Source: an uncultured Chloroflexia bacterium (GTDB lineage Bacteria > Chloroflexota > Limnocylindria > Limnocylindrales > CSP1-4). Taken from it: a stretch of 64,000 nt of DNA. How positions within the stretch are numbered: position 1 is the stretch's first letter; the number at the start of each line of letters is the position of its first letter. Positions 16,039 through 53,237 of this stretch are shown in pieces. The DNA lies in assembly GCA_963794525.1 (NCBI GenBank), contig CAWCEC010000004.1, positions 81,222 to 145,221 of the forward strand, read 5' to 3'. A program made the position numbers and the translations under genes. The notes under the pieces were generated by a model. It did no database searches, was not told the origin of the DNA, and was given only the letters and a program-made list of their open reading frames with translations.

Positions 16039-17056
16039 CTACAGGCGGATGACGGCGTCTTCCTGCCATGACCGCAGGGCACCGGTCGCCATGGCCACGG
16101 CGATCAGGCCGTCCTCGCCGGTGATGGCCGGCGGCCGGGCGTCCCGAACGGCCTCGACGAGGTCGCGGACCTGATCGGCGAACCCGCGGCGGAAGTAGGG
16201 CGCATGCTCGTCCCAGGTCGTGTTGGCGTCGGTGAACCGTTCGTCGCGATAGACCGCTTCGCGGGTGTCGCCACGGAGGAGGTCGACGCCACCGTAGGCG
16301 TGGACATCGACGACCGCCTCGGACCCGATGACGGTGTAGTGGGCGCGTTCGGTTGCCGCGGTGCCCGGGATCTCGTACGACATGAAGAGGTCGGCCAGTA
16401 CGCCACCCGGGAAACTGGAACGTCGCCATCCCGGTCAGATCGGGCATGTCCGTCCGGCGCGACGCGAAGCGCGCCACGACGAGCTCCGGCTCGCGCCCGG
16501 CATACCAGCGCACGATGTCGCAGCCGTGGCTGCCCCAGTCGAGCCACGCTCCGCCCTCGCGTGGATCGAGCGGCCAGCCGGTATTGGGGTAGCCGGGGAA
16601 CAAGCGGTGGACGTGGATCGCGATGGGTTCGCCGGCCTTGCCCTCGGCGACGAGGTCGTGGCCCACCCGGACTGCTTCGAGCCAGCGCGAGATCTTGGCG
16701 AGGCTGAGGTAGACACCCGCAGCAGCGCAGGCGTCGATCATCTGCTGGCATTCCTCGACGGTCAGGCCCATCGGCTTCTCGAGGATGATGTGTTTGCCTG
16801 CGGCGGCCGCCGCGAGGACGTTGGGGAGGTGCGCCGTGTGCGGTGTCGCGATCACGACGGCGTCGATATCCTGGCGAGCCAGCAAGGCCTCGATCGACGG
16901 CTCCGTCTCCGCGCCGAATTCGGCTGCCAGCGCCGGTGCGCGCGTGCCGCTCGTCACGGCCGCAAGCCGGGCGGCGCCGGGTTCTTGCTCGGTGATCGCG
17001 ACGGCGTGGATATGGGCCATTTGACCGGCCCCGATCATCCCGAAGCTGACCGTCAT
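16039..17056 (-). CDS. Gfo/Idh/MocA oxidoreductase; frameshifted near 16410
   Basis: GMIGAG, ATPHTAH, GKHIILEKPM, GGAWLDWGSH; the C-terminus continues in the 16039-16383 frame. Confidence 0.88.
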
Positions 17057-17080
17057 GGAAGACCCTCACGCTTGGCGCCA

Positions 17081-17092
17081 ATTGTCGACAAT
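17081..17092. promoter_or_regulatory. GntR-type operator ATTGTCGACAAT
   Basis: Perfect 12-bp palindrome in a divergent gap; overlaps a minus-strand TATATT (-10-like). Confidence 0.8.
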
Positions 17093-17163
17093 ATACCGCT
17101 CGGGCGGCGAGCGGATGCGCGTGGCAGCATGTCTTGCAGGCTCCAACGTGGAGGATGACGCCG

Positions 17164-18532
17164 ATGGGCGTGACCGGCGGACCAGGCGATCCGGTCGACG
17201 TGCTCGTTTGCGGCGCCGGCATGGCCGGGTTGTGCGCGGCAGCCAGCGCGGTCCAGGCCGGAGTCCGTCCGCTCGTGATCGAGAAGGGCCAGGCGCCCGG
17301 CGGATCGATGCGGATGTCCGGCGGCACGATCTGGACGGCCCCGAGCATGCCCGTCATGGAGACCTGGGTCCCCGCGGGAGACCGTGAGCGCCAGCGGCGG
17401 CTCGTGGATTGCATCGAACCAGGGCTGGTGTGGCTGGAATCGCTAGGCGTCGTGCGGAAGATGCCGATCGCGAGCGATCGACAAGTGGGAGCCGAAGTCG
17501 AACCCGGCGACCTGACCGATCGCCTCGTCGCTGCGATCACCTCGTGGGGTGGGCGGCTCGTCACGGATACGGCGCTCGAGGCCATCGAACGTGGCGACGG
17601 CGCGACGGACCCGTTCACGGTGACCGTTGCCGACGCCGGCGGAGGTCGCCGCACGATTCGGGCCCGTTCGGTCGTCCTCGCCACGGGCGGCTTCGGTGGT
17701 GGGCCCGACCTCCTGACCCGGTACGTCAGCCCCTTCGCCGACTCGATGCTCCTTCGTGCGAACCCGAACAGCGCCGGGGACGGATTGCTGGCGGCCATTG
17801 GGGCCGGAGCGCGGACCTCGCCGTCGATGTCGACCTTCTACGGCCACACGATGCCGGGCCTTCCGGCGGACGTGCCACCGGACCGATGGGTTTCGGTCAC
17901 GCAGTACTACACGCAGGACGCGATCCTCGTGAACGCACGTGGCGAGCGGTTCTTCGACGAGAGCCGATCCATGGCGGACGAAACCGCGCCGTTCGAGATC
18001 GTCCGCCAGCCGGGCGGCAAGGCATGGCTGGTGATGGATCGAAGGATCCACGACGACGAGCCGCTCGCGGGTCGGTCGCCGTGCCCGGGCTCGCGAGGCC
18101 TACGCGAACGCCGTCGCGGCCGGCGCCCCGAACGTGACCGCCGACACGCTCGACGGGCTCGCGGACGGGCTGGCGGCGCTTGGTGTCGAGCGGTCCGGAT
18201 TCCTGGCCACGATCCAAGCGTTCGGACGGGCGGCGGCCGCTGGGACCGCCGCGCAACTCCCCGTCCCCCGCCGACGAGCGGCATTCGGTCTGGTCGAGCC
18301 ACCGTTCCGGGCGCTGGGCGTCCGCCCCGGGATCACCTTCACGCTCGGAGGCATCGATGTCGACAGCGACCTGCGCGTGCTCGACGACGACGGTCGACCG
18401 ATCCCGGGCTTGTACGCAGCCGGCGCCGATGCGGGGGGGACGTACGACGGTGGGTACATGGGTGGGCTCGTGCTGGGCCTGGTCCAGGGACGGGCGGTCG
18501 GACGGGCGCTGGCCGGCCTGGCCGGACCGTAG
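17164..18532 (+). CDS. FAD-dependent oxidoreductase (FAD_binding_2, fumarate reductase/TcuA-like flavoprotein); frameshifted near 18085
   Basis: GAGMAG, IEK..PGGS..SGG, LATGGFGG, GDG, VNARGERFFDE, TFTLGGIDVD, IPGLYAAG. Confidence 0.87.
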
Positions 18533-19816: not shown

Positions 19817-19869
19817 GGGCGTCCTCCGGTGGCTGCCGTCCGGGGACGGCGACGGTGGGTGCGTCGATG

Positions 19870-19885
19870 TAGATTGTCTACAATC
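19870..19885. promoter_or_regulatory. GntR-type operator TAGATTGTCTACAATC
   Basis: Near-perfect copy of the 26505 palindrome in the aldolase/MFS divergent gap. Confidence 0.8.
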
Positions 19886-19920
19886 GGTGATGATACGCGG
19901 AGGCGACCGCCGTTTCCCCC

Positions 19921-21185
19921 TTGGATGCATTCCCCGCCCTGCGAGTGGCGTCGTACCGGCGGCTGCTGGTCGCGCTGACGATCTGCCAGCTCGGCCTCCA
20001 CGCCTTCGAGACCGCCCTCTTCTGGACGGCCCTCGAGCGCACGGGGTCCGCCCTGCTCGTCGGTCTGTTGCTGGCCAGCCTGGTCGTGCCCGTCCTCGTG
20101 CTGACCGTGCCGGTCGGCCTGCTGGTGGATCGATTCGGTCCGCGCCGGCTGCTCCTCCCGGCGGCGTGCGTGGCGGCGGGCGGCTTGGGGCTCGCCACCG
20201 TCGTCCTGGCCTCGACCGACCTCGGGTTCGGATCGGCGCTGCTGCTCGCGCTGGCGGAGGGTGCCTTCTTCGCGTGCTGGGCCATCCCCGCGCAGGTGCT
20301 CGGCAGTCGCATCGTCGATCGCGACCAGATGCCCAGCGCCATCGGCCTGTCCGCCCTGCCGTCAGGCATCGGCTCGTCGTTCGGCGGCCTGCTGCGGCGG
20401 GTTGGTCCTGCAGGCCGCTGGTCTGGTGCCCGTCTTCGCGCTTGCGACCGGCTGCCTCGCGGTCACGGCGATCATCATCGTCGGGCTGCCCAACCTGCCC
20501 GGGTTCGGACCGGGCGCCGGGCGGACGCTGATCGTGGGTCAGCTCAGCGATGCCTTCACGTGGGCACGGCTGACACCGATCGCGCTCGCCGTCATCGCGC
20601 TGGGCGCCGCAGCCGGCTTCTTCCTGATGAGCCGATTCGGGCTCGTGCCGGTGCTGGTCCGCGATGGGCTCCAGGCGGGACCGGCTGCCCTGGGGCTGAT
20701 GACGATGGCCGGCGGCATCGGGTCGATCGCTGGGGACGGTCGTGACGGATGCCACGGGCCGGCGGCTTCGCCGCGGACGTGTGCTGCTCGGGGCGCTCGG
20801 TGTGTCGGGACTGAGCCTCGCACTGCTCGGGATCGCGCCGCATCTCACGGTCGCCCTGGCGTTCGGTGGGCTCGTCACGATGGCGATGATCATCTACAAC
20901 GTCACCTCGATGACCCTCCTCCAGGTGCTCGCGCCGCCGCGCATGCGCGGGCGGATCCTCGCCATCTACGATCTCGTGCGTCTCGGGGTCGTCCCGCTCG
21001 GCAGTCTCGCCGCGGGGTTGCTCGTGCCGATCGTGGGCGTGGCGGGCGTCTTCGTCGCGTTCGGCGGGTTCGTGCTGGTCGCCGTCGCCGTGGCTACCGT
21101 CGCCTGCCGGCCGCTGGTCGCCCTCGACCTGGAGGACGCGATCGCGCGGTCCGGGAGGCTGATCGGCGACTCGCCGACCGGCTAG
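19921..21185 (+). CDS. MFS transporter; frameshifted near 20395 and 20735
   Basis: GLLVDRFGPRR motif A, hydrophobic helices across three frames, LLQVLAPPRMRGR; resembles 403-1770. Confidence 0.83.
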
Positions 21186-21965
21186 GGCGGCGCGTCCCGG
21201 CCGACCGACTCGAACCGACGCAGCAGCGCATCCTCGCGAAATCCGATCCGCGCGTAGACGGATCGACCCATGACCGACGCGGTCAGGCTCGCTCGCTGGT
21301 ATCCCGCTTGCCGCGCGATGGCGAGCACCGCGAGCGTGGCCGTGGTGCCGTGCCCGGCGCCCCTCGCCTCGGGCACGGTCCCGACGTTGGTCACGAACCC
21401 GCTGTCGCCGCCGGGGAACAGCGATGCGCAGGCGACGGCCGCATCGCCATCACGGACCAGCACGTGCCACCACGGGGGAGGCGTCTCGCCCAGCGCCCCG
21501 CGATAGAGCTCCGTCCACGCGTCGATCCCTCTGGCATCTGACCAGCCGTAGGACCGCGCCATCACCCCGAGCCATTCATCGAGCGCGTCGTCGCCCACCT
21601 CATCGACCGCCCCGGCCGGTGACGGGAGCCCGGGCAGATCGATGACCATCCCGTACTCGGGCTCCGCCTCCGACAGGCCCCATGACAGGAGGCGCGCCGG
21701 GAGATCGGCGGGCTCGCTGGACTCGCCCATCCACCACGTCACCGGCACGCGACCGCCGTCGGACGCCGCGGCGTGTGCCGCCTCCAGCCTCGCGTCGATC
21801 GCCGCGGGATCGCCCCGGACCCTGATCCGATGGACGTGGTTGAGGCTCGCCGAGTGGCCGACCCGAGGCCAGCCAGGCGATCTCGTCGTCCTCGTGCAAC
21901 CGCGCTCCCGGGAGGCGTCCGAGCAGCGAGAACGCGCTGCTGAGGGCGCGCTCGGACGCCGTCAC
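21182..21965 (-). CDS. GNAT family N-acetyltransferase; frameshifted near 21850
   Basis: NVGTVPEARGAGHG acetyl-CoA motif, ASVMGRSVYARIGF; GTG start overlaps the enolase stop. Confidence 0.83.
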
Positions 21966-23137
21966 GCGACGCGGACGCCGGCCCCGTCGATGGTTCGCGT
22001 CTCGACGGCATGGCGGCGCAGGTAGTCCTCGTCGATGTCGACGCCGAGGCCCGGGCCGTCGGGGACGTCGACCCAGCCCTTGTCGACGTGCAAGGGTGTC
22101 GCCAGCAGACCCGGCACGATGCGGGTTGTCGTCGACGCCGTACTCCAGGTACAGGAGATCGGACGCCGGCGAGCGGTTGGGATCGGGCAGGCTGGCCAGG
22201 ACCTGCAGTCCCGCGGCGATGCCGATGGCGTTGTTCGACGTGTGCGGCATCGCCGCGATCGAGTGGACTGCCGCGAGGTCTGCGATCCAGAGGGTCTCCG
22301 TGACGCCGCCGCAGATCACCGGCTCGGGCTGGACGATGTCGACGCCGCCACTTCCAAGGAGGGCGATCGCCTCGCTCCTGGACTGCAGGATCTCGCCACC
22401 CGCGAGCGCGATGTCCAGGGCCGCCGCGAGACGCGGGTACCCGGCATATCCCTCGCGCTGGTGGACTGGTTCCTCGAACCAGATGAACCCCAGCCCGTTG
22501 AGGATGTTGCCCATCTCGATGGCCCGCGGGAACGTGTAGCCGGCATTGCCGTCGGCCATCAGATGGAAGTCGTCGGGGACGCTGGCACGCACCTCTCTCG
22601 AGGAGCTTCGCCTCGTGGGCGACCGGATACCGCCCGACCCGGAACTTCATCGCCGTGAAGCCGGCCTCCCGGATGCGCTCGACTTCCGCGGGCCACGTGT
22701 CGGCCGGGTCCTTGCCTTCGATGTAGCCACCGGAGGCCGCGTAGGCGCGTACGCTCGACCGCTGCGGACCGCCGAACGACGCGGAGATCGAGATCGCCGA
22801 GCTGCCGTGCCCGGAGGTCCTCGAGCGCGATCATCACCGCGGAGACCGCGTACGGGTGCTCGGCCGACCAGCGGACGTCGCGGATGTGGGCGCGCAACGG
22901 CTGCGCCGACTTGCCGATCAGTACCGGGGCCGTCGCCTCCACGATCGCGGGGATGCCCGGCACCGCGTACGTCTCGCCCCAGCCTGCGCGACCGTCGGCA
23001 TCGGTGATCTTGACCAGCACGTAGGCGTGCGTGCTCGACAGGGCGATCGACGGGCCGGTCCGCGGATCAAGCGTGTGGCTGACCAGGAAGGTCTCGACCT
23101 GGCGGATGACCCGGCCTTCATCGGTTCCTGACGGCAT
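21962..23137 (-). CDS. MR/MLE enolase-superfamily protein; several frameshifts (~22790, ~22590, ~22100)
   Basis: GWGETY, MKFRVGR, MADGN, WFEEP, GGE, QPE, MPH, LEY, GPGLG spread over frames. Confidence 0.85.
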
Positions 23138-23141
23138 GGTT

Positions 23142-24168
23142 TCAGTACCCTCGTTCTGGATCGACGCGATTGAGGAGCGGATCCCCGGCCACGAACCGGC
23201 GAAGGTTCTCCGCGACCAGGCTGGGCAGCTCGCGCGGTCGACGCCCCAGACACGTGCGGGGTGATGACGACGTTGGGCATGCGCCAGAGCGGGCTGGTCG
23301 GTGGGCAGCGGCTCCTCCCCGAAGACGTCGAGGACGGCGCCACCGATGCGGCCCGCAGCAAGGACCTCGGCGAGGGCATCCTCGTCGACGACCGGTCCAC
23401 GCCCGGTGCTGATCGAGCCAGGCATGACCGGGCAAGGCGCCGAGGACCTCGCGGCTGACGACGCCCCGGCTGGCCGCCGTGAGCGGCAGGGTGATCGAGA
23501 CGAAGTCGGCTTCGGCGACCACCTCGCGGAGCGCTTCGATGCCGGCGATCCGTTCGGGGATCGAGCCGTCCGGATCGCCGGTGCCCGGATGCCGGAACCC
23601 ATCGTCCGCGTGGATGGTCGGGTTGGCCTTGACGGCGATGACTCGCATGCCGTGAGCTGCGGCCAGCCTGGCGATCTCCCGCCCGATCCCGCCGTAGCCG
23701 ACGATGACGAGGGTCTTGCCGCGGACCGTGTCGCCGAGCAGATCGTCCTCACGTCCCTCCGGCCATCGTCCGGTCAGCTGCTGCTCGCGGCGCTGGTCTA
23801 CCTTCTCGGCCACGCGGAGGATCGCGGCGATCGTGTACTGGGCGATCGATGTGGCGTACGCGCCGCGGGCGTTGGTCAGAGCGATCTCCGACGGCCACGA
23901 GGTATCCTCGTCCAGCAGGTGCTCCACGCCGGCAGACAGCACCTGGAGCCAGCGAAGGCTGGGCGTCCTCGTTCGATCGCTTGGCAGCCGGCGCCCGATA
24001 ACGCCGTCGAGATCGGTCGCGGCGACCTCGTCGATTGCGGCCTGGTCCGTGCCGTCCGCGATCCTGCAGATGCAGGTGCGGCGAGATCGCCTCGAACGCG
24101 GCGATCGCCTCCGGTTCGAACGCGAAGGCGATCCCGACCGTCACGTCGGCACCGGGAAGGCTGGTCAC
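23142..24168 (-). CDS. D-2-hydroxyacid dehydrogenase; multiple frameshifts
   Basis: LSAGV, TNARG, IVGYGGIG, TLPLT, GRGPVVDE, LDVFGEEPLP, ITPHVSG, NRVDPERGY. Confidence 0.87.
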
Positions 24169-25394
24169 GCGTACTCGATCGCGCCCGGCCGGTACGGGTG
24201 CGCCTCGACGAAGGCCGGATCGAGCGTGATCCCGAGGCCGGGTGCGCTCGGCCGTTCGACGAACCCATCCACCAGGCGGATCGGCTCACTGAGCAGCTGC
24301 TGGCGGATGTTGTCGGGTGCCAGGGCGTACTCGACGAACCGGGCGTTCGGGCTCGCGAACGCGACATGGAGGTTGGCCATGAAGCCCGGACCGACCGCTG
24401 CGCCGGTGTGCACGATCAGCCCGACGTGGCGCGCCTCGGCGAACCGGGCGATGTCACGGGTGACGGCGACGCCGCCGACATGGGTGGCGTCGGGCTGGAC
24501 GTAGTCGAACGCCCCGGCATCGATGAAGCGGCTGAACTCGTCGATCCCGGTCAGGCACTCGCCGCCCGCGATCGGCACCCGGGTCGCGGCACGGAGCTCC
24601 GCGTAGCCGGCCGGGTCGTCGTAGCGAAGCGGCTCCTCCATGAACAGGAGGTCGAACGGCTCCAGTGCCTTCGCCAGGTCCAGTGCGGTCCGTCGCGACC
24701 ACGGCTCGCGCACCTGGACCGCATGACAGTCCGTGGCGAGCTCGACGTCCGGCCCGAGTGCCTCGCGCAGCGCCCCGAACTTGTCCCGCTCGTCCGCGAC
24801 CCGGATGGCCGTGCCGGCGCCGTACCACGTGCCATACGGCGGGTCGCCGGGCGCGGTCGTGAAGCCACCCGGTCGGCCCTCGAACCCGGTTCCGATCTTC
24901 AGCCCGCGGAAGCCGAGCGAGCTGTAGCGGCGCGCCTGGTCGACCGTGCGTTCGAGCGGCCAGGCACCGGTACCGCCCGACGCATAGAGCGGCAGCCGAT
25001 CATGGGCGGGGCCGCCCAACAGCTCGTGGACCGGCCGACCGGCGACCTTGCCCGCGACGTCCCACAGCGCCATCTCGACGCCGGACAAGACCGACAGGCC
25101 GAGGCCGACCCGGCCCCACCAGAGCGACCGCTGGTAGAGCTCGCGAGCGCAGGTCTCCGGCTGCCGGGGATCGAGCCCGAGAGTGATGAGCAAGCCGCCG
25201 TAGTAGTCGACGAGCGGCGGCACGGTGTCCGCGCAGAAGTAGCCCATGATCGTCTCGCCGACACCGACTACGCCGTCATCGGTCTCGACGACGACGAGTG
25301 CCGCGGTCCGCTCGAACAGCTCGCCCGGCTGCCAGAAGGGATCGCCCGTCCAGGGCACCGTGACGAGGGCGGTCCGGACGGCCGTGACCCGCAC
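24165..25394 (-). CDS. MR/MLE enolase-superfamily protein
   Basis: GVGE, SGVEMALWDVAGK, LKIG, TDCH, MEEP, GGE, QPD, IVH, PGLG. Confidence 0.92.
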   Translation of the reverse strand: MRVTAVRTALVTVPWTGDPFWQPGELFERTAALVVVETDDGVVGVGETIMGYFCADTVPPLVDYYGGLLITLGLDPRQPETCARELYQRSLWWGRVGLGLSVLSGVEMALWDVAGKVAGRPVHELLGGPAHDRLPLYASGGTGAWPLERTVDQARRYSSLGFRGLKIGTGFEGRPGGFTTAPGDPPYGTWYGAGTAIRVADERDKFGALREALGPDVELATDCHAVQVREPWSRRTALDLAKALEPFDLLFMEEPLRYDDPAGYAELRAATRVPIAGGECLTGIDEFSRFIDAGAFDYVQPDATHVGGVAVTRDIARFAEARHVGLIVHTGAAVGPGFMANLHVAFASPNARFVEYALAPDNIRQQLLSEPIRLVDGFVERPSAPGLGITLDPAFVEAHPYRPGAIEYA

Positions 25395-25402
25395 GCGACG
25401 GC

Positions 25403-26437
25403 TCAGCCGGCCGCGTCGACGACGAGGTCGCCGGGAACGGCGTCGACGCTCGGCAGGCCGCACAGGCCGGCGTCATCGGCGAGCTCGGCGCGCAATCCAT
25501 CGAGGACTCGCGCGACGCCTTCTGCCCCACCCACGGCCAGGCCCCACATCGCGGGCCGCCCGATCATCACCGCCCGAGCGCCGAGGGCAAGGGCCACGAG
25601 GATGTCGCTGCCACTGCGGACGCCGCCGTCGAGGTAGACCTCTGCCCCCGCAGCACCCGCGACGACGTCGGGAAGCGCGTCGAGGGTCGAGAGCGAACGC
25701 TCGAGCTGGCGGCCGCCATGGTTCGACACGATCACGCCCGCGGCGCCCGCGTCCACCGCGCGAGCGGCATCGGCGCGCGTCATCACGCCCTTGGGGACGA
25801 TCGGCAGGCTCGTCACGGATCGCAGCCAGGACAGGTACTCCCAGGTGTTCGACGCAACGAGGCCGGGTGACGTCTCGAAGTGCGCGAACCGGGCGCCGCC
25901 CGGCAGGCGGAAACCCAGCCGTGGCGAGGTGTGGTTCACGCCGATCGGCGTGTTGACGAGGGGAACGATCGCGCGGCAGCCGGCGGCCTCCGCGCGAGCG
26001 ACGACCGCGGCAAGCGCATCGCGATCGTCCCAGTTGTAGAGCTGGAACCAGAGCGGCAAGCCGGGCGCCGCAGCCGCGATCTCCTCGACGCTCGTCGTCG
26101 CGTTGACGGCGACCACGAGGAGACTTCCGGCTTGCGCGGTGCCGGTAGCCATCGCGAGCTCGCCGTCCGGGTGGACGGCACGCTGCAAGCCCATCGGCCC
26201 GACCATGACCGGGGCGGCGATCGGGGCACCGAGCACGGTCGTTGCCGTCCGCACATCGGACACGTCGACGAGGACACTCGGGCGGAGGCGTCGCCGTCGG
26301 AACGCGGCCTCGTTGTCGCCGTCGAAGCCCACCCCCGATCCCGATCGGATCCATTCGAAGGTCGGTGTGTCGAGCAGGTGGCGAGCGACGTCCTGGTAGA
26401 TCCGCGGATCGAGACGCGCGACGAGCGAGTCGCTCAT
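25403..26437 (-). CDS. FMN-dependent alpha-hydroxy-acid oxidase (divergent)
   Basis: LRP.VLVDVS, HPDGE, WFQLY, PKGV, VSNHGGRQ, DGGVRSGSD, GRP. Confidence 0.9.
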   Translation of the reverse strand: MSDSLVARLDPRIYQDVARHLLDTPTFEWIRSGSGVGFDGDNEAAFRRRRLRPSVLVDVSDVRTATTVLGAPIAAPVMVGPMGLQRAVHPDGELAMATGTAQAGSLLVVAVNATTSVEEIAAAAPGLPLWFQLYNWDDRDALAAVVARAEAAGCRAIVPLVNTPIGVNHTSPRLGFRLPGGARFAHFETSPGLVASNTWEYLSWLRSVTSLPIVPKGVMTRADAARAVDAGAAGVIVSNHGGRQLERSLSTLDALPDVVAGAAGAEVYLDGGVRSGSDILVALALGARAVMIGRPAMWGLAVGGAEGVARVLDGLRAELADDAGLCGLPSVDAVPGDLVVDAAG

Positions 26438-42434: not shown

Positions 42435-43700
42435 ATGGCGTCGGTCACCCTCCACCAGGTTCGGAAGGTCTTTCCCAACGGCTTCGAAGCGATCAGCGGC
42501 CTCGACCTCGAGATCGCCGACGGCGAGTTCATGGTCCTCGTCGGACCGTCCGGATGCGGCAAGTCCACGCTGCTGCGGATGATCGCCGGGCTCGAGCCGG
42601 TCACGGACGGGACGATCCTCATCGGCGATCGGGATGTCACCGATGAGCCGCCCGCGGCACGCGACATCGCGATGGTGTTCCAGAGCTACGCGCTCTACCC
42701 ACATATGCTGGTCCGCGAGAACCTGGCGTTCGGGTTGCGACGCCGACAAACGCCCGGCCAGCTGATCCGCGAGAAAGTCGGCGGCGTGGCCCGCGTGCTC
42801 GGGCTCGGCGATCTCCTCGAACGTCGACCAGGCCAGCTGTCCGGTGGTCAGCGCCAGCGGGTGGCGATCGGACGAGCGATGGTCCGGGAGCCGGTCGTCT
42901 ACCTGATGGACGAGCCCCTGTCGAACCTGGACGCGAAGCTCCGTGTGTCGATGCGTGCCGAGCTTGCGCGTCTCCATGATCGGCTCGGGGTGACCACGAT
43001 CTACGTCACCCACGACCAGACGGAGGCCATGACCCTCGGCGACCGGGTCTGCGTCATGCTCGATGGGCAGATCGTGCAGGTCGACACCCCGACGCGGCTG
43101 TTCACGGACCCGGCCGACACCTTCGTCGCCGGCACGATCGGCTCACCCGCGATGAACCTCGCGATCGCCACCATCGAGGACGGGGCCGTCCGGTTCGGCG
43201 CGCACCGGATCGAGCTGACCGGCCACCAGCGAGACCGCGTCGGTGGTCGCGCTCGAGTCGTCATCGGGCTGCGACCGAGCGATTTCCGGCTGCGATCGAG
43301 TGACTTCGCGCTCGACGAGGGCGTCCCGGTCGCGAGCGTCGCCCGGATGCCCATCGAGGCCGAAGTCGTGGAGCAGCTCGGAGCCGAGCAGATGATCGTC
43401 TTCCCGATCGCGGTGTCGAGGTACGTCGCGCCGGGCACGGCAGGTCAGCCGGCCGACGGAGCGGCGCCGCCGGAGGGCGCGGACGACGAGACGTTGCTCG
43501 CCGAGCCGGAGACGACGCGGTTCACCGCGCGACTCGACATGCGCAGCACGATCCGTCGCGATCAGCGCGTCGACGTCTACTTCGACGCCGAGCGGCTGTA
43601 CCTGTTCGACTCGGAAACGGGCCTGGCGCTCGAGGACGTGGCGAGCGCGCCCGACCTGACGGCCGTGCCGGCCGGTACTCCGGCCAGCAGCCCCGCCTGA
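42435..43700 (+). CDS. ABC transporter ATP-binding protein (MalK/UgpC-like)
   Basis: [43 protein letters not shown]; AAGGAG RBS. Confidence 0.95.
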
Positions 43701-43715
43701 CGCACCTCCGCCACG

Positions 43716-44597
43716 ATGCGCGTGCTTATCACGGGCGGGTCGGGGTTCGTCGGGCGGCGCGTCGTCCGGACGCTCGCGCCCGACCACGAGGTATTCACCG
43801 CGCAGCGACGCGTCCTGTCCCCGAGCCAGCACGGCGTCCACGATCTCGAGCTGGACCTGGCCGAACTGACGCCGGAGACGCTCGCCCGGTCGACGGGCGG
43901 CAGGCTCGATGCGGTCGTTCACCTGGCCGCTCGCCTCGACAACCCGTTCGGTGTCGATCACACACTCGCGGAGCTGGCGTCCTCCAACGTCGTCGCGACG
44001 CTCCGGCTGCTCGAGGCGTCTGCGGCGCTTGGGATCCGGCGGTTCGTCCACGGCTCGACCGGCGGCGTCAGCAGGAATCCGCCCGCCGGTGGGCGGATGC
44101 ACGAGGAGGATCCGGCGGGTCCGGTGAACCCGTATGGCCTGACCAAACATCTCGCCGAGCAGGCCGTCAGCGCGTATCGCTGGCCGTTCGAGACGGTCAG
44201 CCTTCGCTACTTCGTGCCGTACGGTCGCGACGGATCGAACCCGCTGTTCCAGCACGTGATCGCGGCGATCGAGCATGGCGAGGCCATCGTCGTCGGCGCC
44301 AGCGGCGGCCACGAGCTGAATCCGATCCACATCGACGACGCGGTCGATGCGACCGTCCGCGCGATCGATGCTCCGGGCCTCCCTCCCGTCCTCAACATCG
44401 CGGGTCCGGATGTCGTATCGATCGCCGAGCTGACCCGGCTCCTGGCGGCCGCCCTCGATCGTCCTGTCATCCTCCGGGAGGGCCCGGGATCAGACGAGAG
44501 CTGGGTGGCGGACATCGAGCAGATGTCGCGGCATCTCGGCCGCCCCAGGGTCGGGATCGCGGATGGGATCCGTCGGGAGTGGGGTCGCCCGGGTTGA
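43716..44597 (+). CDS. NAD-dependent epimerase/dehydratase (extended SDR)
   Basis: TGGSGFVG, HLAA, ST, YGLTK, LRYF. Confidence 0.9.
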   Translation: MRVLITGGSGFVGRRVVRTLAPDHEVFTAQRRVLSPSQHGVHDLELDLAELTPETLARSTGGRLDAVVHLAARLDNPFGVDHTLAELASSNVVATLRLLEASAALGIRRFVHGSTGGVSRNPPAGGRMHEEDPAGPVNPYGLTKHLAEQAVSAYRWPFETVSLRYFVPYGRDGSNPLFQHVIAAIEHGEAIVVGASGGHELNPIHIDDAVDATVRAIDAPGLPPVLNIAGPDVVSIAELTRLLAAALDRPVILREGPGSDESWVADIEQMSRHLGRPRVGIADGIRREWGRPG

Positions 44598-44641: not shown

Positions 44642-45322
44642 CTATTCCGTGATGAGCACCGCGCGGACGGGTGAGGCGCAAGCGCCGGTGAGCGCCAGGG
44701 GCGTTGCCACGAGTTTCGGCTTCCGAGCGCCGCTGACCTTGTCCAGGTTCACCACGGGCGCCAGCAGCAGGATGTCGGTACTGAAGAAGCGCTCGAAGAA
44801 GCCCTGGGGATCGCGCGGAGAATCCGCGCGAGGCGTGTCCGCGCCCATGATCGATGGCCCCTGGTCCATGATCCAGAACCACAGATCACGGGAGACGTAG
44901 GGCGGCCGGTCGAGGAAACGCTCCGGCTCCCGCCAGGCCGTGTCCCAGCCCGTGTGGATCAGGACCGCATCGCCGGCCTCGATCGTCAAGCCATCCTGGT
45001 CGAGCGCTCGACGCGCCTCGTCGAGCGTCACCTTCTCGCCCTCGTCCTTGGGCGTGTGGATGACGACCGTCGGCACCATCCACACGCGTTCCAGGGGAAC
45101 CTGCTCGATCGTCTCGCGACCGGCGACGGCGTGCGCTGCTGTCTCGAGGTACGTCCCCGTCTGCGAGGCCATGGAGAGGTAGTCCATGAACAGGCTGCCC
45201 CGGTACGGCTCGGGCATGTCGATCTGGTGGATGTCGACCCCTCCGACCGGCAGGTCCAGGTACGGCGCGCCGTAATACCACATGCCCGAATAGATCGGCC
45301 CTGAGATGTCGATCAGACCCAT
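44642..45322 (-). CDS. Cyclase/kynurenine formamidase family protein with atypical metal motif
   Basis: IDISGPI..GM, QTGTYLE (in place of HxGTHxD), GDAVLIHTGW, GAD, NL, PL...GACASPVRA. Confidence 0.83.
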   Translation of the reverse strand: MGLIDISGPIYSGMWYYGAPYLDLPVGGVDIHQIDMPEPYRGSLFMDYLSMASQTGTYLETAAHAVAGRETIEQVPLERVWMVPTVVIHTPKDEGEKVTLDEARRALDQDGLTIEAGDAVLIHTGWDTAWREPERFLDRPPYVSRDLWFWIMDQGPSIMGADTPRADSPRDPQGFFERFFSTDILLLAPVVNLDKVSGARKPKLVATPLALTGACASPVRAVLITE

Positions 45323-45373
45323 TGCTGACTCCTCCGCTGATGGGCAGTCACGCCGAACGGTGCGGCGGCCTGT

Positions 45374-46303
45374 TCACGGCCCGAAATGGGGCCGCACATC
45401 GTCAAGGAACAGCTCGATGTCGGCCGTTCCGGGGAACCCCGGGAACACGAGCTGGACGTGCTGGAACCCCAGCTCGATCAGGGCCTCGAGGTGGTCGACC
45501 ATCGCCGCTGGGTCGCCGGCGAACGCGACGACGTCGCCCTCCAGTCGCGACCCCGCGGCGCGCCGGGCGGCCGCCCCGTCGGTATCGAGGAACGCCACGA
45601 AGGTGATGGTCCGCACGATGGACGCCGGGTCGCGTCCGACCGTGGCGCAATGCTCCTCCAGCGCCGCGACCTTCCTCCGAAGCACCTCCATCGGGCGCGA
45701 CATGGCGTTCCACCAGTCGGCGTGTTCGGCGACCGCCCGCAACGTCAGCCTCTCCCCGTCACCGCCGATCATGATCGGCGGCGTCGGTCGTGGCACCGGC
45801 GCGGCCAGGGCGTCCTCCAGGCGATAGTGCTGGCCGTCGTAGGACACCGGACCCCCCGTCCAGAGCGCCCGGATGACCTCGATCCCCTCGACCATCTGCT
45901 CGATCCGGGTCCGGATCGGCGGGAACTCGTAGCCGTACGCGCGGTACTCGTCTTCGGCCCAGCCCGCGCCATAGCCGAGGATGAACCGCCCGTTGGTGAG
46001 GTGCTGCAGCGACGCCGCCATCTTGGCCAGGAGCGGCGGGTGGCGATACGAGTTGGCCATGACGATCGTGCCCAGCTGCGGATCGGGGAAGCGGGCGGCG
46101 ATCCAGGTCAGGAGGGTCCAGCATTCGAGGCGGAACCGGTCCTCGGTCATGAAATGGTCCGAGACCCAGATCGATTCGAACGCCGGCGCGGCAAGCGACA
46201 GCACCCGGTCGAGGTCCGCTGTGAACGTCGCCGGATCGACCCGTTCGATCAGGCGGTCGCCCGTCGGCGGGTTGTAGCCGAACGCCAGCCGCGGCCGCTC
46301 CAT
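45374..46303 (-). CDS. LLM-class flavin/F420-dependent oxidoreductase
   Basis: WVSDHF, YRHPPLLAKMAASL, GRFILGYGAGW..EY.AYG, PPIMIGG.GE. Confidence 0.92.
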   Translation of the reverse strand: MERPRLAFGYNPPTGDRLIERVDPATFTADLDRVLSLAAPAFESIWVSDHFMTEDRFRLECWTLLTWIAARFPDPQLGTIVMANSYRHPPLLAKMAASLQHLTNGRFILGYGAGWAEDEYRAYGYEFPPIRTRIEQMVEGIEVIRALWTGGPVSYDGQHYRLEDALAAPVPRPTPPIMIGGDGERLTLRAVAEHADWWNAMSRPMEVLRRKVAALEEHCATVGRDPASIVRTITFVAFLDTDGAAARRAAGSRLEGDVVAFAGDPAAMVDHLEALIELGFQHVQLVFPGFPGTADIELFLDDVRPHFGP

Positions 46304-46307
46304 CCGG

Positions 46308-47458
46308 CTACCCGGCCCCGAGCGGATGCTGCGCCACGACCGCTTCGACGATATTCGCGCCGAGCCCCGGGCGGTCCGGAACGATCAACTCGCCGTCGAC
46401 GATCTCGAGCTTCTGGTCGATGAGGTCCCACTTCCAGGGAACGTCGTCCATGTCGATCTCCAGGATCTCGAGGTTCGGCATGGCGGCGCACAGGTGGGCG
46501 TTGATCAGCGTGGCCAGCGGACTCATGTAGTTGTGCGGCGAGAACATCGTGTCGTAGTGCGCGGCAAGCTCGCAGATGCGCCGCGCCTCCGAGAGCCCGT
46601 TGGCCAGCGTCTCGATCATGACCACGTCCGTGACGTGTCGCTCCAGGAACGGGCGGAACTGCTCGCGCCGGATGAGGGCCTCGCCGTGGCAGATCCTGGT
46701 GCGGGTCTGCCGCCGGGCCGACAGGAGGGCGTCGGGATCGAAACCCTCGGCCTCGAGCCAGTACAGGTCGAACGGTTCCAGTGCCCGGGCCAGCCGGACG
46801 ATGCCACCCATCCGGTACTCCTGGCCCACGTCGAACAGGATGCCCATCGACGGGCCGACCCGATCGCGCAGCGCGCCCACGAACGTCACGGCCGCCTCGA
46901 TCCGCGCGTGGTCGATCGCACCATCGAGCGTCGGTGGGAGGCCCGACGCGAGACCCGGCACCAGGAGGTTCGTCTTGAGCGCCCGGAACCCGGCACGCTC
47001 CACGTCGTCCACGAGCGCGATCCACGCCTCGAGGCTTCGCGCCGGCTCGACCCCGAGCGCCTCCGGGTCGATGGCGCGGTAGGACGCGAAGTGCGACCAG
47101 TACAACGGGATCCGGTCGCGATACAGCCCGCCGAGCAACTCGTACACGGGCACGCCGAGCCATTTGCCCTTGATGTCGTGGAGCGCGATGTCGAGCGCGC
47201 CGATGACCTTCATCCGCTCCGGGACGCCGGCCCGGCCCGAGTCCCACAGGCGCCGTGCGATCAGCTCGATCCGGCGCGGGTCCTGGCCGATGAGCTCCCG
47301 CCCGATCAACCGGATGGCCTCGGCAAGGGACGGCGAGGCATGCCAGTCGTAGCCCTCTCCCCAGCCGACGATCCCCTCGTCGGTCGTCACCTTGACGAAC
47401 AGGAAGTCGCGACCGCCGATGCCGCTGTCGCAGGTGATCGGCTCGACCGCCACGATCT

Positions 47459-47462
<4 letters not shown>
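46308..47462 (-). CDS. MR/MLE enolase-superfamily protein (galactonate dehydratase-like clade)
   Basis: FVKVTTDEGIVGWGE, DIKGK.LGVPVYELLGG, YWSH, LKTN, WLE, HGE, SPHN, LEID; GTGA overlap. Confidence 0.92.
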
Positions 47463-48626
<1,164 letters not shown>

Positions 48627-48698
48627 CGCCGGATGGCTCCGCCGAGGCCGTCCAGGTCATTCGCGGACAGCGTGCTCCTCCGTTGACAGGGCCTCGAG

Positions 48699-48708
48699 TT
48701 GTCTACAA
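48699..48708. promoter_or_regulatory. GntR-type operator TTGTCTACAA
   Basis: In a divergent gap; followed by TATACCG as at 17081; TTGACA at 48683. Confidence 0.75.
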
Positions 48709-48870
48709 TATACCGGTAGGCGTCGTCGATCGGTCGGGGGCGCCGTGGCTCCTCTTTTGGGCCGCCGGGTATTTCCCCTATGCCCGGTCGATGCGCGGGA
48801 CTGGCAGACTCCTCCGCCGTCCCGCGCATCACACGCCCAGGACCAGCGCTGCCGTACGGGAGACATCTCG

Positions 48871-49901
48871 ATGAGCGTCGGGTTCGGGCTCCTGGGGTCC
48901 GGGTTCATGGCCCACACGTACGCCGAGTCGCTCGCCAAACACGTCCCCAACGCCCACCTCGCGGCGGTCGCCCTTGGGATCCCGAGCGCCGGGGCTGGTC
49001 GAGGAGTACGACGTGGCCCTCGAGCCCACGGCCGAGGCGCTGCTGGCGCGCGATGACGTCCAGGCCGTCATCATCGCCACCCCGCACTCGACCCACGTGT
49101 CACTCGCCATCGAGGCGGCGGCCGCCGGGCGCCACGTCTACCTCGAGAAGCCGATGGCCGTCACCCTCGCCGAATGCGACCGCATGATCGAGGCCTGTCG
49201 CGCCGGCCGGCGTCCTCCTCACCGTGAACCACGTCACCCGCTATCGCCGGTCGCCACGGACGGCCAAGGGCCTCGTCGACGAGGGCGCGATCGGGGACCT
49301 GCGGATGGTCCGCGTGCTGAGCTCGGTGATCGGCTATCTCCCGGACGACCACGGGTGGGCCAAGAACCCCGAGGAAGGCGGCGCGTGGCTCGACATGGGC
49401 GTCCACATGTTCGATGCGCTGCGCTGGTTCACCGATTCCGAGGTCGACGTGATCTTCGCCAGCATCCGCGATTTCGGCGGCCTCGAGCATCAGCGCCGCA
49501 CGGGACTGGCCGAGACCGTGATGCGCAACGGCGTCCTCACCCAGCTGCTCGTGAGCATGGAGATGCCGGCGCCCGGGCTCGGCTCACAGAGCCAGTGGAC
49601 GCTGGTCGGGAGCGACGGGATCATCGAGTCGGATTCGTACGGCAAGGTGCGCCTGGGACGGGGCGATACCTGGGAGCTGGTCTACGAGATGCCCCCGTTC
49701 GCGCTGAACGCGGACGTCTACAGCCCGGTCCGGCTCGAGGCGTTCGCCGCCCAGGTCGAAGGGTTCGCCGCGGCGATCGAGGCCGGCGGCGCACCCGGCA
49801 TGGCCGGCGAGGACGGCCGCGCCGCGGTGGAGCTCGTCGAGGCGGCCGCCCGTTCGTCGTCGAGCGGGCAGGCCGTGCGCCTCCCGCTCGCTCCCGCCTG
49901 A
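48871..49901 (+). CDS. Gfo/Idh/MocA oxidoreductase; frameshifted near 48980 and 49205
   Basis: GLLGSGFMA, ATPHSTH, HVYLEKPM, GGAWLDMGVH; paralog of 31241-32308 and 16039-17056. Confidence 0.9.
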
Positions 49902-49925
49902 CGCGGGTTCGGAGCGTCCACACCG

Positions 49926-51072
49926 TTGCGCATCGTCGACCGCTCGGTCCTCAGCGCGGCTGTACCGGGAACCTCCCGGGCCGCCGCGACCTTCCCGACA
50001 TTCACCGTCCTGGCGGACGGCAGCCTGCTCGCGACCTACAGCATCGGATCGACCAAGGACAGCGACGACCTGACGGTCGAGCTTCGGCGGTCGATCGACG
50101 GCGGGGCGACGTGGGACGAGCCGCGCGCCCCGTTCGAGACGACCCTGGACGGGCCGGCGCGGCTCGCTCAAGTTCGCCCCGATCACGAGGCTCGATGGCG
50201 ATCGGCTGATCATCGTGGCGTTGTGGATCGATCGCGAGGCGTTCCCGGGTCAGCCGCTCTTCAACCCCGAGACCGAGGGGTGCCTGCCGATGGCGATCCT
50301 CGTCGCCGACTCGGCCGACGCCGGGGAGACCTGGTCATCGTGGCGACGGGTGGCGATGCCGGCCGACGTCGGTCCGCCGAGCCTGACCAACGCGATCGTC
50401 CGCTTCCCGAGCGGCCGTCTCCTGCTGAGCGTCGAGACCAACAAGGAGTACCTCGACACCTCACGCTGGTTCCAGCGTGTCGTCCACCTCTGGTCGGATG
50501 ACGACGGCGTCACGTGGTCGGCGCCGACGACGGTCGTGGCCGACCCGACCGGTCGGATCGGGACCTGGGACCAACGAGGGGCCGTGGCGGCCGATGGGCG
50601 CCTCGTCAGCTTCGCCTGGATCTACGACTTCGAGGCGGTCGCCTACCTGGACATCCAGCGGCGGATCAGCGCCGACGAGGGCCGTTCCTTCGGGGAGCCG
50701 GTCGACCTCGGCTTCGCCGACCAGCCTGGCCACCCGGCCATCCTGCCGGACGGCCGCGTCGTGCTCGCCTGGGTCGATCGGTTCGGCTCAGGCTCGATCC
50801 GGGCTCGCCTCGCAGCCTCGACCGAGGCACCGTTCGAGCCGGACACCGAGATCGTCCTGTTCGATGCCGCCGCCGATGCGACGAGCGCCGCCCGGACCGG
50901 GTCGTCGGCGACCGCCACGACAGGCGATGCGCTGGAGCAGATGCAGACCTGGTCGTACGGTCTGTGTTACGCCGACGCATTACCGGATGGCGACGTCGGG
51001 GTCGTGCACTATGCCCCGGGAACCGCCGGCGGGATCGAGATCCGCTGGATCCGCCTGGCGGTCGATGGCTGA
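49926..51072 (+). CDS. BNR/Asp-box sialidase-fold protein; frameshifted near 50165
   Basis: SIDGGATW, SADAGETW, SDDDGVTW, SADEGRSF; NPETEG and WDQR shared with the paralogs. Confidence 0.85.
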
Positions 51073-51087
51073 CGGCATGAGGGAGCG

Positions 51088-52143
51088 ATGACCGACGAGG
51101 CGGACCCGCTGGCAAACGCGACGCTCGCCGAGATGGAGACGTTCGCGGCCGCGCTGCTCCCCACCTACGCGCTCGACTACTACGCCTCGGGCGCGCGTGA
51201 CGAGCAGACGTTCCGGGGCAATCTCGCGGCGTGGGGCCGCTGGTGGCTGGTCCCGCGGATGCTCAACGACGTGTCGGCGGTGTCGCTCGCGACGACCGTG
51301 CTCGGCCAGCCGATCGCGCTGCCGATCCTGGTCGCGCCGATGGCGTCGCAGCGGCTCGCCCATCCCGACGGCGAGCTTGCCACGGCCCGCGCGGCGGCAG
51401 GGGCGGGCACGATCATGGTGGTGTCCACGAGCACGATGGTGCCGATCGAGGAGATCGGGGCGGTGCCGGATGTGGCCTTCTGGTTCCAGCTCTACCCGTT
51501 CCCGGACTTCGAGGAGACGCTCGCCATGATCGAGCGGGCCGTCGCAGCCGGGGCGAAGGCGATCTGCCTGACGGTCGACGTGGCCAGCCATATCGATCCG
51601 AAGCGGCGGCCGCGAGGCGGCCTGGTCGCGCCGGCCTGGGTGGAGTACCCGATGCATCCACCCAAGGCCGCGGACACGCTTGCCGCGCTGGACTGGCCCT
51701 ATCTCGAGCGTTTGCGCGCGCGCGTCAGCGTTCCGATCGTCCTCAAGGGGATCCTGCATCCCGACGATGCCCGGGCGGCCGCCGATGTGGGTGTCCCCGC
51801 CATCGTCGTGAGCAACCATGGCGGGCGCACCCTCGATGGGGCCGTCACGACCGCGGAGATCCTGCCCGAGATCGCCGATGCGGTGGGCGACCGGGTGGAG
51901 CTGCTCGTCGACGGCGGCATCCGGCGGGGCGTCGACGTGATCCGTGCGCTCGCACTCGGTGCCCGCGCCGTGCTGGTGGGCCGCCCGTTCCTGTGGGGGC
52001 TGGCCATCGCGGGAGAAGCCGGCCAGCGGCGCGTCTTCCGGACCCTGCGCGATGAGTTGGAGCAGGACGCCAGGCACTGCGGCATCGCCGATATCACCGC
52101 CGTGCCCCGAGACCTCGTCCGGATCAGTCGCCTCGGCATCTGA
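51088..52143 (+). CDS. FMN-dependent alpha-hydroxy-acid oxidase
   Basis: DYYASGA, HPDGE, WFQLY, LTVD, LKGI, SNHGGR, DGGIRRG, GRP. Confidence 0.93.
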   Translation: MTDEADPLANATLAEMETFAAALLPTYALDYYASGARDEQTFRGNLAAWGRWWLVPRMLNDVSAVSLATTVLGQPIALPILVAPMASQRLAHPDGELATARAAAGAGTIMVVSTSTMVPIEEIGAVPDVAFWFQLYPFPDFEETLAMIERAVAAGAKAICLTVDVASHIDPKRRPRGGLVAPAWVEYPMHPPKAADTLAALDWPYLERLRARVSVPIVLKGILHPDDARAAADVGVPAIVVSNHGGRTLDGAVTTAEILPEIADAVGDRVELLVDGGIRRGVDVIRALALGARAVLVGRPFLWGLAIAGEAGQRRVFRTLRDELEQDARHCGIADITAVPRDLVRISRLGI

Positions 52144-52144
52144 C

Positions 52145-53237
52145 GTGCGAATCACGGATATCCGGCTCGACAGCCTGTCGATCGGCCCGACCCTGGTCCA
52201 GGTCGTCACCGACGAGGGCGTCGTCGGCCTGTCCGAGCTCGGCTGGCACGACCCCGCGATCTTCCGCGGCCACCTGGAGCGTGTCATCAAGCCGCAACTC
52301 ATCGGCGCGGACCCGCTGGCGCCGGGCCGCATCCGCGAGCGCCTGGTCAATGGCACGCGCGAGCTCCCGTACCCGACCACCAGTGCCTTCGCCGGCGTGA
52401 TCGACATCTGCCTGTGGGACCTCATGGGCAAGCGCGCCGGTCTGCCGCTCTACGCCCTGCTGGGCGGCGCCGCCCGGACCGACATCCCGCTGTACTGGAG
52501 CGTCGGCGCCGGCTTCGCCAAGACGGTCGAGGGGATGGTCGCCGACGTGCTGCGCGGGCGGAGCCAGGGGTTCGAGGCGTTCAAGATCCGGATGGACTGG
52601 GGTCCGCTCCAGCGCGACGTGGACCCGGCCAAGGACATCGAGATGGCTCGTCGGTGCCGGGAGGCGCTCGGCCCGGACGTCTGGATCGGCTTCGACGCCA
52701 ACCGCGGCTATTCGGTCGGGACGGCGATCCGCGTCGGGCGCCAGCTGGAGGCGCTCGGGTTCGCACATTTCGAGGAACCGCTCCCGGAGCATGACCTGGC
52801 CGGCCTGCGCGAGGTCTGCCGCGCCCTGGACATCCCGGTCTCGACCGGCGAGCAGCTCCATGACCGCTGGGGATTCCGGGATCTCCTCGCCGCGGCGGAC
52901 CCGGACATCCTCCAGCCGGACATCGTCGACGCGGGCGGGATCAGCGAGGTGATGCGCATCTTCGAGCTCGCCGCGAGCCACGCCAAGCCGGTCATGCCGC
53001 ACAGCCCGGCGGCCGGGATCCTCGCGACCGCCAGCCTGCACGCCTATGCGACCGTGGCGTCGACGCAGGCGCCGCACGAGTACTCCGTCGAGTACGGCCC
53101 GCCGCCCGAACGGATCGCCGAGCTGTTCGAGGAGCCCATCGAGCCGCAGGCCGGTCGGATCCGGCTGCCCGACCGGCCGGGCCTGGGCCTGGTGCTCGAT
53201 GAAGCCGGCGGTCGCGCGGCTTCGCGTCGACGCCTAG
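52145..53237 (+). CDS. MR/MLE enolase-superfamily protein; frameshift near the C-terminus (~53205)
   Basis: TDEGVVG, IDICLWDLMGK, FKIR, FDAN, FEEP, TGE, QPD, MPH, PGLG. Confidence 0.92.

Follow-up and report, generated by a model that had tools for sequence, protein, structure and literature searches.

A promoter-located palindrome across 148 kb of an uncultured Limnocylindria-type Chloroflexota genome, and an FCD-type GntR protein as its probable repressor

Regulators of the FadR subfamily of the GntR family commonly autoregulate and are released from DNA by an effector, and the consensus of their operators is given as TNGTNNNACNA (PMC11472048). Even-centred operators are described in the same source, for example that of Bacillus subtilis GntR, ATACTTGTA-TACAAGTAT, and the operator of LldR is listed there as TGGTCTGACCA (PMC11472048). 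Here we describe a palindrome of this general type, GTAGATTGTCGACAATCTAC, in the genome of an uncultured Chloroflexia bacterium (GCA_963794525.1), together with a gene, gntR1, that encodes a GntR protein with a winged helix-turn-helix (HTH) and an FCD domain. The stretch analysed, referred to below as the window, is 64,000 nucleotides long and corresponds to bases 81222–145221 of contig CAWCEC010000004.1 (C4), in a 3.17-Mb assembly of six contigs that is 80% complete by marker genes. We conclude that GTAGATTGTCGACAATCTAC is probably the operator of the FadR-subfamily (FCD) regulator encoded by gntR1, and that repression would proceed by predicted promoter occlusion.

26579..27271, plus strand: gntR1, FadR-subfamily GntR regulator, winged HTH and FCD domains (Pfam)

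Distribution of the palindrome in the genome and among relatives

The G+C content of the window is 0.65–0.73 per kb. A search of the window for the core TTGTMKACAA, with up to one mismatch allowed, returned six matches, every one of them exact (starts at 17082, 19874, 26509, 36395, 36486 and 48699), while shuffled sequences averaged 0.83 matches, with no more than 4 in any of 100 shuffles. A longer 18-mer proposed in the initial annotation of this DNA, with up to three mismatches allowed, was recovered at four of the six places (19870, 26505, 36391 and 36482) versus 0.02 expected, including a perfect match with no mismatches at 26505–26522. At 17082 and 48699 the core and one arm are preserved, and these copies differ from the 18-mer by at least five mismatches. 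The six positions originally reported were right to within a few bases, mixing starts of the 18-mer with starts of the core. Alignment of the copies found throughout the genome extended the motif to the full 20-bp palindrome GTAGATTGTCGACAATCTAC.

The 10-mer core occurs 18 times in the whole genome, with 16 of the occurrences on C4 between 43.5 and 191 kb. A genome-wide scan with a symmetric matrix returned 17 sites with scores of 19.7–38.3, all of them in the same part of C4, and the best match outside that span scored 16.0. The span holding all 17 sites amounts to 148 kb of one contig, or 4.7% of the 3.17-Mb assembly. A unit of some 37 kb tied together by six sites, as first described, must therefore be enlarged to about 148 kb and 17 sites. 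The copies in the window are listed here with their matrix scores.

17077..17096: operator copy 1, GCCAATTGTCGACAATATAC; exact core, matrix score 29.1
19869..19888: operator copy 2, GTAGATTGTCTACAATCGGT; matches to both the 18-mer and the core, matrix score 29.3
26504..26523: operator copy 3, the best copy, with the perfect 18-mer; matrix score 37.6
36390..36409: operator copy 4, GTACATTGTCGACAATCTAC; one mismatch to the 18-mer, matrix score 37.8
36481..36500: operator copy 5, TAGGTTTGTCGACAATCTAC; matches to both the 18-mer and the core, matrix score 25.8
48694..48713: operator copy 6, TCGAGTTGTCTACAATATAC; the weakest copy, exact core, matrix score 21.7
61928..61949: degenerate remnant of a seventh site, in the divergent gap 61895–62000; matrix score 10.6

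None of the 17 sites falls inside a Pfam-matched coding segment, as judged by Pfam scans of high-scoring open reading frames (ORFs). Thirteen of them are spread over 11 divergent gaps and the other four are in co-directional gaps; convergent gaps have none. Between 17 and 49 kb, each of the five divergent gaps holds a site, and the six copies of the window are all located there, just as had been noted initially. No good site was detected in the other divergent gaps of the window (8072/8138, 10870/10869 and 61895/62313). The last of these contains only the remnant (score 10.6), and the orthologous gap in two related genomes, G056 and G045, has a full site, so that the remnant in the 61895–62000 gap represents either erosion or an assembly error. 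This gap separates a BNR_2 gene from a D-serine-dehydratase-like gene. The motif is thus genuine: its occurrence is not random, it is located in promoters, and it is a palindrome of the kind that FadR/FCD GntR regulators bind.

A survey of 61 genomes of the genus with the 12-mer ATTGTCGACAAT detected it in ten, at 1 to 13 copies each, and found no copies in the other 51. Nine of the ten motif-bearing genomes carry an orthologue of gntR1; eight of these orthologues have at least 70% identity over at least part of the protein, and that of G022 is a broken copy with 56% and 76% identity in its two pieces. No match to gntR1 above 49% identity was found in the motif-less genomes. Carriers G055, G056, G045 and G074 were predicted by protein search and then confirmed, with 8–14 copies each, and the control genome G044, which has only a 40% paralogue of gntR1, has no copies. 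The closest public orthologues of gntR1 are in metagenome-assembled genomes (MAGs) titled Chloroflexota or Candidatus Limnocylindrales. Among public MAGs, all 18 testable gntR1-type loci have the palindrome 70–100 bp before the aligned start; one further locus was left out because it lacks upstream sequence. In an alignment of 17 upstream sequences, with a mean column identity of 60%, GTAGATTGTCGACAATCT is conserved in at least 90% of rows and most of its columns are invariant; the other conserved blocks are the nearly invariant GTCAAGCC and ATGGACGGG, the ribosome-binding site and the start codon.

Conservation extends to the genes next to the sites. In the stretches examined from G056, G023 and G045, 24 of 30 sites flank orthologues (at least 55% identity over at least half the length) of genes downstream of a site in the present genome. 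In all three relatives a site has been retained ahead of the orthologues of both the HpcH/HpaI-type aldolase and the aldehyde dehydrogenase, and the gap in G056 that is orthologous to that of copy 6 holds a site. Gene order, meanwhile, differs among relatives: a single site in G056 is flanked by two genes that here have 14 kb between them. In G045 the sites are distributed over five contigs, and over 90 kb separate one cluster from a contig end. This arrangement fits a trans-acting factor combined with portable site–gene modules, and because of it we read the system as a trans-acting regulon of modules and not as one fixed block.

These observations also bear on whether the palindrome is regulatory at all. 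As a short perfect palindrome, repeated in the intergenic DNA of an accessory region, it resembles a non-regulatory repeat such as a repetitive extragenic palindromic (REP)-like element, a terminator hairpin or a mobile-element footprint. Yet it never occurs in a convergent gap and has no T-tract, the repeated unit is only 20 bp with no shared flanks, and it stays with orthologous first genes through rearrangements; moreover, no integrase or transposase domain turned up among the Pfam matches of the region's ORFs. Repeats of the REP or terminator type were ruled out on position, and we regard a non-regulatory origin of any of these kinds as extremely improbable.

Promoter overlap and the candidate regulators

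A scan for sigma-70-like promoters in 17000–36990 gave three matches (0.8 in shuffled sequences), all overlapping palindromes. On the minus strand these include TTGACT-18-TAGATT, ending at 26517, and TTGACG-18-TAGATT, ending at 36403; the third is TCCACA-18-TACAAT. On the plus strand, TTGACA-17-TAGGTT (36460–36488), read directly from the sequence, abuts copy 5. The earlier proposal that an operator arm is itself the -10 box at 26505 and 36391, and that the motif at 36486 abuts a promoter, holds by both the promoter scan and the reading of the sequence. Over the whole region, five of the 17 sites have a -35 box with 5 or 6 of 6 matches at 17–18 nucleotides from an arm, each pointing at a gene. 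The gap upstream of gntR1 has, in 17 species, two conserved and correctly spaced boxes, TTGAC on the minus strand and TGGACG on the plus strand, and the two arms there therefore appear to be the -10 boxes of back-to-back promoters.

In the window, the arms of copy 3 are the predicted -10 boxes of the FMN (flavin mononucleotide)-dependent dehydrogenase operon leftward and of the gntR1 operon rightward, the right arm of copy 4 is the predicted -10 box of the leftward aminotransferase-operon promoter, and the left arm of copy 5, TAGGTT, is that of the rightward aldehyde dehydrogenase-operon promoter. Repression by promoter occlusion is likely because at five promoters an arm is the predicted -10 box. 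In the mechanism that we propose, a GntR1 dimer would bind the palindrome and, at promoters whose -10 hexamer is one of its arms (TAGATT, or TACATT/TAGGTT), would occlude RNA polymerase. In the gap between gntR1 and the FMN-dependent dehydrogenase gene, one bound dimer would shut both back-to-back promoters, including that of gntR1 itself. Release of the repressor would follow when a small-molecule effector binds its FCD domain. The 17 proposed operators, of which those beyond the six good copies of the window lie upstream and downstream of it on C4, stand in front of about 25 transcription units of the 148-kb accessory region.

The promoter data could also be accommodated without a dedicated repressor, if the palindrome were a compact bidirectional promoter core made of two opposed -10 hexamers. 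The arms TAGATT, TACATT and TATATT do fit TANNNT, and the gntR1 gap has conserved -35 boxes 17–18 nucleotides away on both sides. A -10 box does not require the invariant centre TTGTCGACAA, however; 12 of the 17 sites are without a good -35 box, four sites are in co-directional gaps, and 51 congeneric genomes lack the element although they too must have promoters. We consider a bare promoter core very improbable.

If the palindrome is an operator, gntR1 is the best candidate for the gene of its binding protein. The 230-residue product matches PF00392 (GntR HTH) with 56.4 bits (cut-off 27) at residues ~16–76, corresponding to residues 249–309 of the long ORF that contains gntR1, and PF07729 (FCD) with 82.3 bits (cut-off 24.3). 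Its nearest solved chains are FCD-type GntR regulators (7xp0, E 6e-19). It scored below all NCBIfam equivalog cut-offs (TIGR03338, 112.5 of 271.5 bits; NanR, 56.7 of 260; PRK11414, 54.9 of 225), and is assigned by these scores to none of the named GntR equivalogs (PhnR, NanR and others). The assembly contains ten GntR-type HTH matches, three of them inside the region. What singles out gntR1 is the type of operator (an inverted repeat with the GT...AC core TTGTCGACAA, present in all 17 promoter-region sites), its fixed autoregulatory placement and the lack of sites at two other regulators of the region (IclR-type and XRE-cupin, below). The best copy, at 26504..26523, is 60–70 bp upstream of gntR1, which is probably autoregulated. 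A literature search for TTGTCGACAA, which contains a SalI site, gave no GntR-operator paper by title or abstract among the matches listed, which look like primers or unrelated uses.

Several points weigh against this assignment. The matrix was trained on the same sites that it scored, so that the evidence is the gap in scores and not the scores themselves; the count of exact cores and the genus survey are independent of the matrix. Twelve sites lack a good -35 box at the right spacing, and occlusion of a -10 box is inferred for five only. The carriers are kin, and their counts are not independent events. An orthologue of the FMN_dh gene is found in exactly the same nine genomes as gntR1, and because the region occurs as an all-or-none package, co-occurrence does not separate gntR1 from the other regulators of the island; the IclR-type and XRE-cupin regulators were each present in five of five carriers tested. 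Genome G073, which is 63% complete, carries the 12-mer five times on a single contig (C9:199278-259397), with neither gntR1 nor gntR2, a paralogue described below, found in this genome and no GntR gene on the site-bearing contig. In G022, a rearranged exception, the gntR1 orthologue (C9:1570-5103) has an in-frame TGA and no site in its own upstream gap; this locus, where a variant site, GATTGTTGACAATC, occurs ~190 bp past the 3' end of the gene, may be a decaying copy of the system. Finally, judged by their sequences, gntR1, gntR2 or both could encode the protein that binds the palindrome. The other regulators considered are as follows.

58775..59411 (about), minus strand: gntR2, FCD-GntR paralogue of gntR1, read in two frames in this assembly
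12194–13030, plus strand: IclR-type regulator, in the accessory region
G000:C4:66938-67606 (L002:10938-11606), upstream of the window: XRE-cupin regulator, in the accessory region

The gntR2 product is 53% identical to that of gntR1 over residues 4–137, and HTH and wing are near-identical in the two, GVSR(G/A)PVREA(L/I)R(Q/H)LEQEGLVE..PHRGAVVVG. The gene is inside an operon running from 61895 down to 56390, which also encodes a BNR_2 protein, an Xaa-Pro dipeptidase, an ArgE/DapE-type deacylase and a D-serine-dehydratase-like enzyme. The promoter of this operon has a full site in G045, and G056, a genome in which no gntR2 was found, has one in the orthologous gap. All three testable GntR2-type loci have matches upstream, a full site at L055 (-52) and half-site-like matches at L057 and L058 (18.7 and 19.7). 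Because of the HTH likeness and these upstream sites, gntR2 is at least a member of the regulon and may share the operator. GntR2 might then be the main or a joint binder, with two FCD sensors reading different effectors through one operator set, and two functionally equivalent GntR paralogues have been described in Corynebacterium glutamicum (PMC2230225). On the other hand, gntR2 was found in only five of the ten motif-bearing genomes (G000, G019, G023, G045 and G055), whereas G056, with 11 sites, and G074, with 11–13, have gntR1 and no detected gntR2. In addition, this assembly breaks gntR2 over two frames, and the best and most conserved site adjoins gntR1, not gntR2. We therefore take gntR1 as the common factor and consider main or joint binding by GntR2 unlikely. 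A third gene, gntR3, downstream of the window, is 34% identical to gntR1 and was found in one of five carriers tested.

By distribution, the IclR-type and XRE-cupin regulators fit as binders of the palindrome as well as gntR1 does. Neither gene, however, has a site in its own upstream gap, either in this genome or in G023, while the site upstream of gntR1 is fixed in the 18 testable loci, and the TTGT..ACAA inverted repeat is of the GntR/FadR type; binding by either of these proteins seems quite improbable. No LacI, TetR or LysR regulator gene was found in the region. A LacI-type operator, with its central CG, was ruled out, there being no LacI gene on this part of the contig.

Genes of the region and their possible meaning

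The gene map was built on Pfam matches; two gene callers missed or mis-called frame-broken genes, in one case preferring a spurious minus-strand ORF over gntR1. Genes flanking the six copies were assigned by Pfam, with NCBIfam where stated.

15644–17056 / 16039–16383 (split), minus strand: GFO/IDH/MocA oxidoreductase, left of copy 1 (Pfam)
17134–18532 (split), plus strand: FAD (flavin adenine dinucleotide) oxidoreductase, right of copy 1 (Pfam)
18545–18970, plus strand: cupin, right of copy 1 (Pfam)
19016–19816, minus strand: HpcH/HpaI-type aldolase, left of copy 2 (Pfam; NCBIfam below cut-off)
19921–21185 (split), plus strand: major facilitator superfamily (MFS) transporter, right of copy 2 (Pfam)
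21182..26437, minus strand: operon left of copy 3 (Pfam; NCBIfam below cut-offs)
25403–26437, minus strand: FMN-dependent alpha-hydroxy-acid dehydrogenase, operon left of copy 3
24165–25394, minus strand: enolase-superfamily enzyme, operon left of copy 3
21600–23942, minus strand: D-2-hydroxyacid dehydrogenase and a second enolase-superfamily gene, both split over frames
21182–21748, minus strand: GNAT gene, operon left of copy 3
27268–28368, plus strand: enolase-superfamily gene after gntR1
28383–29192, plus strand: GNAT gene after gntR1
29210..36363, minus strand: operon left of copy 4 (Pfam, NCBIfam)
36519..44597, plus strand: operon right of copy 5 (Pfam, NCBIfam)
44642..48626, minus strand: operon left of copy 6 (Pfam, NCBIfam)
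48872..53300, plus strand: operon right of copy 6, 3' end uncertain (Pfam)

Copy 1 sits in a 77-bp divergent gap between the GFO/IDH/MocA oxidoreductase (minus strand) and the FAD oxidoreductase (plus strand). The operon left of copy 4 encodes a class-III aminotransferase (split), a D-2-hydroxyacid dehydrogenase, a DHDPS-family lyase and a PIG-L-type deacetylase, along with a GFO/IDH/MocA oxidoreductase, a threonine-synthase-like PLP (pyridoxal phosphate) enzyme and an Ntn hydrolase of the Asparaginase_2 family. The operon right of copy 5 comprises an aldehyde dehydrogenase, a class-V aminotransferase, an NAD (nicotinamide adenine dinucleotide)-dependent epimerase/dehydratase and a sugar-type ATP-binding cassette (ABC) transporter (binding protein, two permeases and ATPase). 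Leftward from copy 6 are two enolase-superfamily genes (the first split), an F420/LLM-class oxidoreductase and a cyclase-family protein, and rightward a GFO/IDH/MocA oxidoreductase (split), a BNR_2 protein, a second FMN-dependent dehydrogenase and an enolase-superfamily enzyme.

About ten genes between 16 and 50 kb (15644–50209) are split over two frames, for example at 21600–23942, 17134–18561, 19921–21185, 36519–36885, 47459–48626 and 48872–49901. The class-III aminotransferase is one frame of 462 codons in its G023 orthologue, and the window has one extra base near 35787–35791; soil-metagenome contigs of related strains (90–99% alike) lack one base at 35791. The same contigs have further single-base differences, at least at 21852, 22108, 22595, 22796, 29820, 36528, 36583 and 36839, all of which are in or beside split genes. 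The frame breaks are probably assembly indels rather than pseudogenes, with real decay as the alternative; indels are the simplest reading because the assembly has six contigs but a completeness of 80%.

A recount of the genes downstream of the six sites gave 35, in agreement with the approximately 35 first estimated. In the whole 148-kb region, following co-directional genes, about 56 of 125 ORF pieces are downstream of a site, and about 25 transcription units are preceded by one. The region contains at least eight enolase-superfamily, at least eight GFO/IDH/MocA and at least eight amidohydrolase genes, as well as five BNR_2, three D-serine-dehydratase-like and four DHDPS-family genes. Also present are D-2-hydroxyacid and FMN-dependent hydroxy-acid dehydrogenases, HpcH-type aldolases, S15 and Xaa-Pro peptidases, thiamine-diphosphate enzymes, and peptide-type and sugar-type ABC transporters. 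None of 31 window proteins tested reached a curated NCBIfam cut-off, and consecutive steps of one pathway could not be assigned from the region's genes with Pfam and NCBIfam. The enzymes are a heterogeneous set from many superfamilies, and the one repressed catabolic unit induced by one metabolite, as suggested in the initial annotation, can only be inferred. Two effectors are possible, because gntR2 may share the operator. Positions 1–16000 of the window and 145–191 kb of C4 form a dense store of paralogous families without curated assignment. Just beyond the last operator copy, C4:193806-197807 (minus strand) encodes a 1333-residue protein with four GAF domains, GGDEF and EAL.

It is possible, though on balance doubtful, that one FCD-GntR is the master switch of an accessory scavenging region of ~150 kb in a clade of uncultured soil Limnocylindria-type Chloroflexota, acting through a portable promoter-operator module on at least 17 promoters and responding to a convergent effector; its operator may also be read by a paralogue. 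One switch would then govern dozens of orphan genes for enolase-superfamily, GFO/IDH/MocA, amidohydrolase and peptide-uptake proteins. Each half-site would be a -10 box, and the 20-bp palindrome with its -35 box would be a module travelling with rearranged gene modules. The effector would be a convergent downstream metabolite (e.g. an alpha-hydroxy or alpha-keto acid), not each pathway's own substrate. We know of no cultured member of the lineage, and no paper combining Limnocylindria, Chloroflexota and regulon turned up among the matches listed. Because the operator is sharply defined and a candidate repressor is named, there is a direct handle on the effector, which would in turn point to the substrate class of about 50 enzymes without a curated family, including at least eight orphan enolase-superfamily members. 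As far as can be judged from sequence, the system would also illustrate cleanly how two opposed -10 boxes can make up a repressor site, and how a trans factor can hold a regulon together while gene modules move.

Comparison with known systems

LldR-, PdhR- and GlcC-type FadR regulators resemble the present case in that an FCD regulator is divergent from an FMN-dependent alpha-hydroxy-acid dehydrogenase. Regulators of this group are sensors of alpha-hydroxy and alpha-keto acids. PdhR is among the solved relatives of gntR1 (9jpj, E 5.7e-07). The relation in sequence to this group is distant, however, and the operator centre is even-spaced here and odd in LldR, PdhR and GlcC. By analogy with LldR-type regulators, the FMN-dependent alpha-hydroxy-acid dehydrogenase and enolase-superfamily neighbours of gntR1 suggest, as a guess, an organic-acid effector.

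The paralogues GntR1 and GntR2 of Corynebacterium glutamicum, described as functionally equivalent (PMC2230225), are a precedent for gntR1 and gntR2 sharing an operator. According to the same source they coordinate gluconate catabolism with glucose uptake (PMC2230225); here, gntR2 is missing from half of the carriers.

DipR, from the dipicolinate cluster of Alcaligenes faecalis, is likewise one FadR-type repressor with several palindromic operators, six in its case, which are described as lying in divergent and internal promoters of one catabolic cluster and overlapping -10 and -35 boxes (PMC11472048). DipR is also reported there to be autoregulated, and its palindrome to be conserved across strains while the flanks drift (PMC11472048). 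The DipR system differs in having about 13 genes, one defined pathway, a known effector and a GTATAC-core operator (PMC11472048), compared with about 25 transcription units over 148 kb, and enzymes of many superfamilies, in the present region.

A further related system is GntR of Bacillus subtilis, the founder of the family and a member of the FadR subfamily, which has a winged HTH with an all-helical effector domain and an even-centred inverted repeat with a TTGT..ACAA core as its operator (PMC11472048). In that system the operator is in the promoter and the repressor is released by a metabolite, and the same design is proposed here. Unlike the gnt operator, the palindrome described here has a CG rather than an AT centre and GTAGA rather than ATAC arms, and there are 17 operators instead of one locus. 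The system is thus an ordinary kind of switch and not a new principle, with a neat promoter-operator design used on an unusually large scale (17 operators, 148 kb).

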